From the IMG/VR virus record IMGVR_UViG_3300027793_000063, positions 1 to 64,000 of that record: 64,000 bases of DNA. One strand, given 5' to 3'. The notes under the pieces are model-generated. The model ran no database searches and was not told the origin of the DNA. It saw nothing but the letters and a program-made list of their open reading frames with translations. Position numbers and translations under genes: made by a program. This document shows positions 13,655-15,508 of the stretch, in pieces; positions within the stretch are counted from its first letter, which is position 1; each line of letters opens with the position of its first letter. The DNA is from a virus (lineage: Duplodnaviria; Caudoviricetes).

Positions 13655-13911
13655 TTTTTGCAGTTGATTTCGATCGAGCGCAGGTCGTCCGGCTGTCGTG
13701 CATGCCGTATGCGCTCCGCAGATGACGCACTCCACCTTCCAAGCGCCGATCTCCTTCGCCGGCCACGGTAGCGGCGCGCGGCAGAACAATGCGCCGCACA
13801 GCGAACTCCGCCATGCGGGCGCGGGTCTGTTTCGCAGTCCAGATCATAGCCACAGTTCCAGCATCGGTATGCGGTTTCCAGATTGCGCTCGTTGCATTTG
13901 AGACAGTTCAT
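13651..13911 (-). CDS. chimeric ORF starting inside attC-like site A
   Basis: Zn-ribbon start, then an out-of-frame copy of the 15690 gene's C-terminal half. Confidence 0.4.
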   Translation of the reverse strand: MNCLKCNERNLETAYRCWNCGYDLDCETDPRPHGGVRCAAHCSAARRYRGRRRRSALGRWSASSAERIRHARQPDDLRSIEINCKK

Positions 13912-13965
13912 GGGTGTGCTTTGGTAGCGCCGTTCCCGGCGGAGTCGGTGAGCTTTTCGTCGTAT
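13781..13965 (+). repeat. attC-like site A
   Basis: GCAGAAC...cacagcgaactccgcc / ggcggagtcggtgagc...GTCGTAT (degenerate R'). Confidence 0.6.
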
Positions 13966-14438
13966 TTCCTTCCCTCCGTGGCGACGGCTTCACCCTTCGG
14001 AAGCTCCACACGCGTTCCTAGAACTGGCACCGGGAACTTTGGCAAGCGGTCAAGCAAGCCAGCGGGCACGTTGCCCACAGAGCCAATGACACCCCACGCT
14101 GGCGGTATCTTCGCGCGGCACCCGCTCTTAAAGTCAATCCGGTCTTGCGCGACAATAATTGATCCGGCGCCGTGTTCGTTGTAGGGCGACAAGTGCCCTC
14201 CATCAATCAAGGCCAGCGCGAGCAGTCGCTTCGCTCTCGCATTGAAGCTCATGTAGTGGCCCTGGCACAGATTCGCCGGGCGTCCGGCTACCATGTGGTA
14301 TTTCTCATCCATCACCGCGTGCGCGGCGATGGTGTTCGGGATTCGTGCGCGGCAGGTATGTGGACACCGTGCGCCTGTCTTGCGGCACTTGGCTTCGCAC
14401 TGCGCGTGCCAGTCGGTCGGATAGTATGGGATGCTCAT
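13908..14438 (-). CDS. cassette gene, hypothetical
   Basis: Stop lies inside site A. Confidence 0.6.
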   Translation of the reverse strand: MSIPYYPTDWHAQCEAKCRKTGARCPHTCRARIPNTIAAHAVMDEKYHMVAGRPANLCQGHYMSFNARAKRLLALALIDGGHLSPYNEHGAGSIIVAQDRIDFKSGCRAKIPPAWGVIGSVGNVPAGLLDRLPKFPVPVLGTRVELPKGEAVATEGRKYDEKLTDSAGNGATKAHP

Positions 14439-14507
14439 AGGAAGAAACTCCGCCCACTCCAAGGGGCATTCTGCTTTGAATAACGGTCGTGAACTTCAAC
14501 GGCGGAA

Positions 14508-14593
14508 AGATAACTAGAGGCTACACGCGAACTCCGCCGCTCGGGTTCGAGCGCGGGCTGGCAGATTCCGGTCCATGAGCTTCACCGATAGAC
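14508..14593 (+). repeat. attC-like site B (hybrid)
   Basis: AGATAAC...gcgaactccgcc (A-type left arm) plus tccggtccatgagcttcacc GATAGAC (D-type right arm). Confidence 0.6.
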
Positions 14594-14790
14594 GACGGGC
14601 GCGGCTTCGATGCGGCGCGGTGCATCAGGCGCACGCATTCTTGCAGCCAGTAGCGATATAGCCCCATGTCTCTGCTTCTGAGGGCGCGCTCTTTGCAGTT
14701 TTTCGCCATGCGGAGTTCCGCTCCCTCGTCGTCTATCACCCGAATGCAGCGAACCGCACCCACGCTGGTTTGTGTGTCTGTTTTGTTCAT
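14521..14790 (-). CDS. cassette gene, hypothetical
   Basis: Starts in site C loop, ends in site B. Confidence 0.6.
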   Translation of the reverse strand: MNKTDTQTSVGAVRCIRVIDDEGAELRMAKNCKERALRSRDMGLYRYWLQECVRLMHRAASKPRPSSIGEAHGPESASPRSNPSGGVRV

Positions 14791-14835
14791 AGAGTCTGTC
14801 CTTATTCTGGCGGTCGCTGATCCGGCGCGTTCTGT
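14731..14835 (+). repeat. attC-like site C
   Basis: GTCTATC...tgcagcgaaccgc / gcggtcgctga...GTTCTGT. Confidence 0.75.
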
Positions 14836-15098
14836 GCCTTCCTGACTGCTACCACGCAGTATCCCCTGCCGCCGACGTTTTGCAGGTCCAGATAGGCCAT
14901 CGCATCATGGACGTTTTCACGCCATGCCACGCCTGTCTTCCCGCCATCGTTTGAGACGGCGAAGATTATCCCCGGCACAGAACCAGCGCGCTGCATGGAA
15001 CCGGACCCTGCCGGTTCGCGCCGCTCTGTTTCGTAGCGTTTTTCGTTTTGCTCCACAGCGATGTCCCACGCTGATTTGTGATCGTTTTCTGGGTCCAT
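14802..15098 (-). CDS. cassette gene, hypothetical
   Basis: Starts in site D loop, ends in site C. Confidence 0.6.
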   Translation of the reverse strand: MDPENDHKSAWDIAVEQNEKRYETERREPAGSGSMQRAGSVPGIIFAVSNDGGKTGVAWRENVHDAMAYLDLQNVGGRGYCVVAVRKAQNAPDQRPPE

Positions 15099-15165
15099 AG
15101 GTCAGTGAATTTCGGGTTGAGAGCGCGGGCTGGCAGATTCCGGTCCATGAGCTTCACCGTTCGGC
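14977..15165 (+). repeat. attC-like site D
   Basis: ACAGAAC...gctgcatggaaccgga / tccggtccatgagc...GTTCGGC. Confidence 0.8.
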
Positions 15166-15449
15166 GCATCGTCCATGAGCGGGTTCACGGCTTTGACGGC
15201 CTCCCGCGCCCCCTCCGCCACCACCGCAAAGTATTCGTCGTATAAGTGCTCCCACTTCTTTGTTTTCAGCTTTGACCAGCAGCGAGCGATGAGTTGGTGG
15301 TCATCGCGGCTGCACCGACCGGATTTCGAGCGGAATGCCACCGCCACCACCTCCGACCGCGTGGTGTTCAAACGCACAAAGAAGTCATAGAGCGTAAGCG
15401 CCGAACCATGCGCTGATGCAGGACGGCGGGTATGGCGGTCAGCGTGCAT
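15102..15449 (-). CDS. cassette gene, hypothetical
   Basis: AGGAGG RBS and ATG inside site E loop, ends in site D. Confidence 0.65.
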   Translation of the reverse strand: MHADRHTRRPASAHGSALTLYDFFVRLNTTRSEVVAVAFRSKSGRCSRDDHQLIARCWSKLKTKKWEHLYDEYFAVVAEGAREAVKAVNPLMDDAPNGEAHGPESASPRSQPEIH

Positions 15450-15508
15450 TTGAACCTCCTGTTGGCCCGTCGCCGCATAGCTCCCCGCCGCCCCCTTCGC
15501 GGTTCGGA
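15400..15508 (+). repeat. attC-like site E (15-bp insertion before R')
   Basis: GCCGAAC...gctgatgcaggacggcggg / cccgtcgccgcatagc...GTTCGGA. Confidence 0.65.

Follow-up and report, generated by a model that had tools for sequence, protein, structure and literature searches.

Two models of phage mosaicism have been set beside each other, in the terms of one account of the subject (PMC3233612): homology between sequences at the module boundaries, and random joints followed by selection. In the cassettes of T4-type phages, as reported by Arbiol et al. (2010, PMC2839356), motifs called PeSLs (promoter-early stem-loops) flank small ORFans, and recombination between motif copies inserts, deletes or replaces the ORFans without an integrase; in that report the PeSLs sit between an upstream stop codon and a downstream ATG, and have a sigma-70-like promoter and a terminator hairpin. 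Clusters of attC sites without an integrase (CALINs) have also been published for virulent phages (Qi et al. 2023, PMC9892861). Here we describe an array of small open reading frames (ORFs) on the minus strand of a Caudoviricetes record, IMG/VR IMGVR_UViG_3300027793_000063; the window analysed is the first 64 kb (64,000 nt) of this 126,971-nt record, which is rated 68% complete. An original prediction from this DNA had placed integron-like recombination sites with a crossover between G and TT at five points, A to E, near the 3' ends of the ORFs o176, o89, o98, o115 and o84, respectively (Table 1). We find at these points breakpoints, repeats, shared blocks and variant forms, and the best reading of the array is phage mosaicism with shared linker blocks, functionally like the PeSLs of T4, and not an integron.

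An integron attC stays attached to its own ORF, whereas in the array the element has its proposed crossover on the gene-proximal side and the tail moves with the downstream unit. Going by what the CALIN report describes, the array is similar to such clusters in its small ORFs of one orientation, its junction element at the 3' end with the ORF ends inside it, and its sharp joints by AAC/GTT at most junctions, but an R''/R' core pair, an imperfect palindrome and an integrase are all lacking. With the PeSLs, as far as the T4-type report characterizes them, it has in common a repeated motif beside ORFans in a variable region and direct repeats that enclose a movable block; the blocks of the array, in contrast, are located in the 3' coding ends, are without a promoter or a stable hairpin, measure 12-47 nt and are few. 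Like the novel joints of mosaic phages, in the sense of the account cited above, near-identity drops abruptly to none at gene or domain edges and short edge sequences are shared; the array differs in that its joints are steadily 9-22 codons upstream of the stop codon, and in that unrelated genes are followed by the same coding block, reused in one frame.

Comparison with relatives indicates that the five points are real mosaic breakpoints and that the short tails move with the downstream DNA. At D, the two homologues of o115 among 5.8 billion proteins (P0002, 84%; P0003, 58%) align up to N97 (...APN, ...APN and ...AQN), and past this residue o115, P0002 and P0003 have three unrelated tails. 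At B, the sole homologue of o89 (P0005) shares the start, the N-terminus and, with few substitutions, the body up to PSSI, and then continues with EKLCEPPEETSR in place of GEAHGPES.... At E, the sole homologue of o84 (P0016, 132 aa) shares RRNRR..IEIMKCPNCKK..CPHCR.DRVLE.AP up to AP(N/T), followed by 78 differing residues. At C, the o98 core is the sole match of an unrelated contig (L006, 4,225 nt) to the 127-kb record; it is 98% identical, with 4 mismatches in the final 187 nt, and there is no likeness beyond CAG AAC G at 14828. The match of a further contig (L009) stops at 14827, and that of a contig from run X20 (record 27) at 14831. The array stretch is present nearly verbatim, with 0.99 of its sequence words, in freshwater metagenome runs (run X13 has no contig across 15005-15338, and coverage in run X20 is partial). 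At A, three contigs from two of these runs match the o176 body to 13965 and then have a different tail, and another contig of run X13 has the first bases of the A tail behind another body ending in ...CCGAAC (30 nt are seen, and the tail probably continues). Bodies end with the codon AAC at C, D and E, in this X13 contig and at both L006 junctions, and with GAC or ATC elsewhere.

Loose contig ends were found at 13965, 13991 and 14023/24 (runs X13, X14 and X20). The segment from 13965 to 14023 (59 nt at the end of the o176 body, with the R-type relic) is matched by contigs of three runs that go on into three different sequences on its right and into other sequences on its left; it acts like a linker common to other genomes in these samples. 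Two joints in run X13 (13823 to 15577 and 14006 to 14488) were considered as deletions and rejected; their sides (42 and 31 nt) show 80% likeness and were read as relatives' genes that match paralogous parts piecewise.

The five sites were compared with each other by Smith-Waterman alignment, using pairs from the 3' ends of 129 other genes as controls. The pair B-D scored 84, against a control maximum of 30. The sites had been predicted to form one family, and this did not hold for the other nine of the ten pairs, which score within the bulk of the controls: 11-93% of control pairs reach an equal score (for E-D, the alignment on which the proposed 15-bp insertion in E depends, the score of 17 is not above chance, with 17% equal or higher). 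B and D share what we call the R-type block, which begins with GGT GAA GC; 39 nt are identical, followed by a 1-nt indel and 7 nt, and the repeat has two copies in the 126,971 nt. Because both are copies of one 47-48 nt stretch, B and D count as a single observation. A relic of an R-type junction lies inside o176, and the 14-nt pattern CCGAANGGTGAAGC has two matches in the window, one at D and one in o176 (0.14 expected; 0 of 100 shuffles reach two).

The two R copies are 572 nt apart and enclose o98 and the o89 body. The protein P0007, from a 718-nt contig of another assembly, consists of o115, the R block and the end of B in frame, that is, the form without the 572-nt block. Contigs built from k-mers of four runs stop within the repeat, with record ends at 14558 and 15130. 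No R block was found in the viral contigs searched, and among near copies of the 24-mer at junction D nothing was convincing apart from B. The record holds a second insert bracketed by repeats, at 88669-88717 and 89022-89070, where 49 nt (96% identical, 353 nt apart) enclose an 88-aa ORFan. This repeat, outside the window, duplicates a 179-aa gene (MNSDSKYTILGYDR) over its start and first 14 codons; an 18-codon stub ORF is left behind. Nearby, by reading without alignment, there is another repeated leader-like stretch ahead of two small-gene starts.

The second block, called A-type, has the pattern G.A AAG CTC A.C GAC. It follows junction A and recurs with one mismatch at a sixth junction, F, which the original prediction did not list and which is located within the N-terminal part of o84. 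The sequence from 15647 to 15498 aligns to that from 13970 to 13820 with a score of 82 (shuffles 29.7 +/- 5.3, maximum 47), and the likeness ends at E. Three copies of the motif AAGCTCANNGAC are present in 127 kb, always 3-5 nt behind A, B or D (triplet-shuffle mean 0.1), and there is one in L006, precisely behind the o98 junction. The next gene of L006 ends with CCT AAC / GCA GAA CTG AGC GAC...ATGA, and the following one with ...TPNQ. In all, the window has two A blocks and L006 has two, and there are two R blocks with one relic. All A-type tails whose end is readable from the DNA (A, and twice in L006) stop in an ATGA overlap. For the first 20 nt of four independent leaders the likeness sum is 55 (controls 45.7 +/- 3.8; P ~0.016, a post hoc value).

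In all four contexts defined by DNA (A, F, L006 and the X13 contig), reading enters the A block at a codon boundary, with the first codons in one frame, and the R block is in a single frame in its three contexts (D, B and inside o176). One frame in 7/7 contexts has a probability of ~0.004 under a uniform null, for a sample that is small and was chosen post hoc. The F copy in o84 loses the frame through a 2-nt deletion; in the B/D block, AAGCTCA is one base farther from the joint than it is in the A block, and is therefore in another frame. Frame keeping is not a universal design. The predicted bias of codon phase is not refuted by this small wider set of junctions, and the frame is lost afterwards in the o84 copy. 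The idea that C-terminal tails are swapped at the sites was borne out in that the points are true module junctions whose tails travel with the downstream DNA, and not in that the frame would always be retained.

The coordinates of the original prediction are right, and its statistics and integron reading fail. The five minus-strand ORFs end at 13908, 14521, 14802, 15102 and 15439, and ATG starts are present at 13911, 14790, 15098 and 15449; AGGAGG precedes the one at 15449 by 5 nt. The C opposite the supposed crossover G is at codon position 3 at all five points (TAC GAC, TCT ATC, CAG AAC, CCG AAC and CCG AAC in frame). The expectation of one third for this phase was too low: in a crude set of 162 genes of the same phage, the third codon position is occupied by the C of CCGAAC in 37 of 60 cases, and by that of AAC in 819 of 1457 (~0.6). 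A crossover at G and TT had been assumed at every site, and GTT is present at C, D and E only, with GTC at A and GAT at B. That starts and stops lie within the sites is correct as to position and partly circular as a claim, because each site was delimited so as to run from the crossover as far as the following start. Tight packing of this kind is common genome-wide as well: by a permissive count, 96 of 134 minus-strand genes have an ORF start (at least 45 codons) within -30 to +15 nt of the stop, 54 of these 96 with stop/start overlaps of 1-4 nt. Beyond the sites, ATGA overlaps are found at 13451/54, 15690/93, 16151/54 and 16687/90.

We looked for the components of an integron in the record. 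The plus strand from 13000 to 16800 has no GTTRRRY and one RYYYAAC, and RYYYAAC/GTTRRRY core pairs (50-130 nt apart) number 2 in the whole record (triplet-shuffle mean 7.3), with none at any site; the heptamers at A to E are GTCGTAT, GATAGAC, GTTCTGT, GTTCGGC and GTTCGGA. Single-strand folds of the five sites on both strands with DNA parameters did not beat shuffles in any of ten cases (z from -1.17 to +2.59; 26-200 of 200 shuffles as stable). PF00589 (Phage_integrase) had no match in the 126,971 nt, 68% complete, with the positive control matched in 14 of 14 genomes, and PF00239 (Resolvase) had none in the same record, with a positive control that worked. Core boxes, hairpins and recombinases, which integron-like sites would call for, were therefore all lacking in the tests of the record. 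Note that the absence of an integrase alone decides little, because the record is 68% complete and a CALIN is by definition without one; since phage CALINs have been published (PMC9892861), going by that report an integron reading would not represent a new category either. A scan of 13000-16800 against Rfam gave one match below threshold (HH9, 17.8 bits; threshold 52) and none to known RNA families, and a search for sigma-70-like promoters at the array found none, with no excess of terminators. Other ideas were considered and dropped. Cleavage at N/X by an intein or an Asn-lyase would not fit bodies that are too small and have no His-Asn and no Cys/Ser start; for GAAC as an ECF-sigma or AR9-type promoter, the downstream elements are not at a fixed distance; and GTTC targeting of the IS91 type was dropped, with no transposase seen and none searched for.

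The o98 family (the window gene and the proteins P0017-P0064) is an uncharacterised small-domain family with 49 representatives at E<=0.001 with 50% clustering. Pfam gave no match for 16 of its members. In the alignment of 16 members, the domain end ...VVAVRK.QN is present in 7 and is followed by unrelated tails of 1-23 residues; others end sooner, and many are tail-less. In relatives of low G+C (L007 and L008), ...QN is encoded by CAA AAT. The family pattern is FAVSNDGGKTGVAWR...YLDLQN...VVAVRK; two members, of 1420 and 2242 residues, contain 5 and 9 matched stretches, and L007/L008 have tandem copies. An o98-family gene also forms a cassette in L005, a 184-kb close relative that is 91-97% identical on either side of a swap of 205/401 nt (window 22047-22251, L005 2287-2687); the window counterpart is an unrelated ORF of ~59 aa. 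The left joint is 7 codons ahead of the upstream stop (after ...CPECE) and the right joint 4-5 codons into the downstream gene, so that both joints (~22.2 kb) are within the flanking genes, and neither AAC nor a block is present. By hand translation of the L005 side, the upstream ORF has no stop before the next start and continues into the next gene.

The explanation that we prefer, at a probability of roughly 0.6 for the whole, is that the source is an uncultivated freshwater jumbo phage with a hyperplastic ORFan region, in which short coding linker blocks serve as portable homology for general recombination, under selection for intact bodies and for stops that land on the next start. Conserved cores would be separated by short exchangeable linkers, each starting directly behind the codon with which conservation of the upstream gene ends, in most cases ...[P/Q]-N (C[CA]G AAC). 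The linker would supply the upstream gene with its tail of 9-22 codons and stop, and the next gene with its ribosome-binding site and start. The general recombination or replication machinery of the phage may insert, delete and swap cores at the blocks, which would guide it; the 572-bp block of o98 and o89 was possibly gained, or lost, by a single crossover between the R copies. The reading in one frame may persist since the stop lands on the next start (ATGA), which would keep translational coupling.

Several observations weigh against this explanation. P0007 may be an assembly chimera over the 39-nt repeat. The blocks are short, C and E have little in common with the other sites, and the motifs were defined after the sites had been seen. 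With one mismatch allowed, the motif is enriched (15 vs 4.2), yet most of the extra matches are within large genes and may reflect codon usage. The degenerate A-block pattern found 6 loci in viral contigs, all unrelated coding 'KL[TS]D' stretches; because the A pattern hit only ordinary coding sequence and the R pattern nothing, the block family is known from just two phage lineages and metagenome fragments. A genome-wide search of upstream k-mers gave no enriched one like the blocks, a looser pattern (AAC-N5-10-TCA..GAC) matched at 4 further places, each deep in large ORFs, and of 60 CCGAAC occurrences 9 are no more than 75 nt from a stop (~6 expected by length share). In C-terminal 25-mers genome-wide, [PQ]N is not enriched (12/3800 vs 95/34062). 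The Asn, at least in L007/L008, is a feature of the protein and not a DNA site, because it is kept with other codons. At its 5' side, the o98 core that L006 shares begins inside the ORF, without start codon or leader, and therefore 'leader plus gene' is not always the moving unit. Finally, no recombination gene was identified in the record.

Much of this could also arise if random illegitimate joints were filtered by selection for gene bodies and the following start, with spacers trimmed by deletion as far as the last codon required, tails that are junk read-through, and blocks that are bystander leftovers by descent. This is the standard model of mosaicism as the account in PMC3233612 presents it. 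The breakpoints directly after the last protein-conserved residue, also where the codons differ, are in its favour, as are the L005 swap, with its joints inside both flanking genes and no block, and the unconserved tails, which are rich in G, P, S and E and whose 9-22 codons would be about the open-frame length before a stop in DNA of 60% G+C. We nevertheless regard it as unlikely, since under it one would not expect one block to start at the same base behind 4-5 unrelated bodies, and this in two unrelated phages, direct repeats of 47-49 nt to surround inserted ORFans twice in one genome, or, for what the small post hoc sample is worth, a single frame in all seven contexts. If instead the tails were functional peptides (...PN-[E/A]-[K/E]-L-[S/T]-D..., ...GEA...), as a docking, targeting or processing signal spread by selected in-frame shuffling, the constant frame would follow, and so would the presence of the motif behind unrelated bodies in two phages and the synonymous or conservative differences between copies (CTC/CTG, ACC/AGC, GCT/GCC). 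But AAGCTCA..GAC is common to the A and R blocks in different frames, the o84 copy was kept despite its frameshift, B and D share 7 nt out of frame after the 1-nt indel, no likeness of tails goes past 5 residues, and many family members have no tail at all, so that a peptide function is very unlikely.

A dedicated site-specific cassette system, integron-like or new, which would cut at AA/C-G (between G and TT on the other strand) at sites carrying stops and starts, is highly improbable. The very sharp joints and the repeated AAC as last body codon speak for it, together with [PQ]N in the last 25 residues of 4 of 6 consecutive array genes (12/152 genome-wide), the second L006 junction, which is GTTAGGC on the other strand and fits GTTRRRY, and the integrase-less attC clusters of virulent phages in the report cited above. 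Set against these are the sites without core pair or hairpin in a record (127 kb, 68% complete) without tyrosine or serine recombinase, two of them also without GTT, the lack of an extended consensus among them, and an Asn that is kept with AAT codons in the relatives of low G+C. Alternatively, the A and R blocks might combine with the [P/Q]N codons before them into a coding-embedded plug-and-socket junction element, common to freshwater phages that are unrelated and served, possibly, by an enzyme not yet recognised; this we consider quite unlikely. Portable homology in coding linkers, acted on by general recombination, is the explanation that we favour.

The array is part of a tight minus-strand operon from 16.7 to 12.9 kb (Table 1). 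The window has a G+C content of ~61%, its minus strand carries the majority of the genes, and it encodes an RNA polymerase Rpb2-domain-6 protein, a NAD-dependent DNA ligase and a C5 cytosine methylase. Pfam and PHROGs searches with 10 array ORFs gave, besides phrog_547, solely weak zinc-ribbon hits below the cut-offs. A relative (L003) retains o97, o179, o154 and the phosphoesterase (44-65% identity) and none of the 6 intervening ORFs; the array region is thus variable relative to it. No match was found in the GenBank phage collection by blastn with 13400-16200, no homologue in viral-contig scans with o115, o89 and o176, and no match in a metagenome scan with the o115 alignment, in collections from which close relatives may be missing.

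Table 1. Coordinates of the ORFs, junctions and linker blocks of the array (window positions)
Feature	Position	Strand	Description
o179	16151-16690	-	ORF
o154	15690-16154	-	ORF
o154 C-terminal part	15697..15853	-	Degraded second copy at 13649-13797; score 125; 78.5% over 93 nt
o84	15439..15693	-	Small zinc-ribbon ORF; weak hits below Pfam cut-offs; body end ...APN (junction E)
Junction F	15625..15640	-	GAG ATC / GAA AAG CCC ATC GAC; A-type block, 1 mismatch
Junction E and o84 tail	15439..15502	-	CCG AAC / CGC...; tail REGGGGELCGDGPTGGSNAR; contains AGGAGG and the o115 ATG (15449)
o115	15102..15449	-	ORFan; conserved body AHGSALTL to ...APN; 3 proteins found; invariant columns end at N97
R-type block, copy D	15112..15159	-	Directly after CCG AAC of o115; encodes GEAHGPESASPRS; 39 nt identical to B
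o98	14802..15098	-	Uncharacterised family (FAVSNDGGKTGVAWR...VVAVRK.QN); core 14828-15049 also in contig L006
Junction C and o98 tail	14802..14829	-	CAG AAC / GCG...; tail APDQRPPE; carries TCAGCGAC, second half of the block
o89	14521..14790	-	ORFan; body end ...PSSI
R-type block, copy B	14541..14587	-	Behind o89 body; then 80 nt without ORF start
o176	13908..14438	-	ORFan; composite C-terminus ...ELPK / GEAVATEGRKYD / EKLTDSAGNGATKAHP
R-type junction relic	13987..14000	-	Inside o176; CCGAAG GGTGAAGC vs CCGAAC GGTGAAGC at D; same frame (G-E-A)
Junction A and A-type block	13908..13959	-	TAC GAC / GAA AAG CTC ACC GAC...; tail ends in ATGA overlap with o86
o86/o112 overlap	13451-13911	-	Includes the o86 locus
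o86 locus	13649..13911	-	Patchwork in three frames; zinc ribbon paralogous to that of o84
Phosphoesterase	12909-13454	-	phrog_547, E 5.7e-37

The stretch from 13451 to 13911, downstream of the array, is a patchwork that could consist of decayed fragments, overlapping genes or a frameshift site. In the o86 locus, a second frame has ~12 codons ('MAEFAVRRIV') resembling 'TAEFAVQRMV' of P0016, and a third frame has 'LPWPAKEIGAWKVEC', a copy of the o154 C-terminus, after which the first frame resumes with 'DDLRSIEINCKK' and a stop codon. The third frame continues as o112 to the ATGA overlap with the phosphoesterase. The two copies of the o154 C-terminus flank the entire array. Elsewhere in the record, ORF 17952-18959 starts with a tandem duplication of MNPRRSRSLP at 18899-18987 (two 29-nt copies, 97% identical, 60 nt apart), the window has a 36-nt palindrome (94%) at 55682-55717, and a 260-nt stretch outside the window (98593-98850) is 81% self-complementary.

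How phages gain and lose ORFans is still debated between short homology at the boundaries and random joints with selection. The present locus offers joints at the level of single bases, a candidate natural indel polymorphism and the reuse of linkers in frame in two phage lineages; read-level data and more relatives at this locus could test both models directly. A plug-and-socket element, if there is one, would let ORFan cores be dropped in frame between resident head and tail with ATGA coupling restored each time, and would be a protein-coding counterpart of attC or PeSL. For annotation, the array gives a warning: in small phage proteins of this kind, the final 10-20 residues may be part of the neighbouring module rather than of the protein family.

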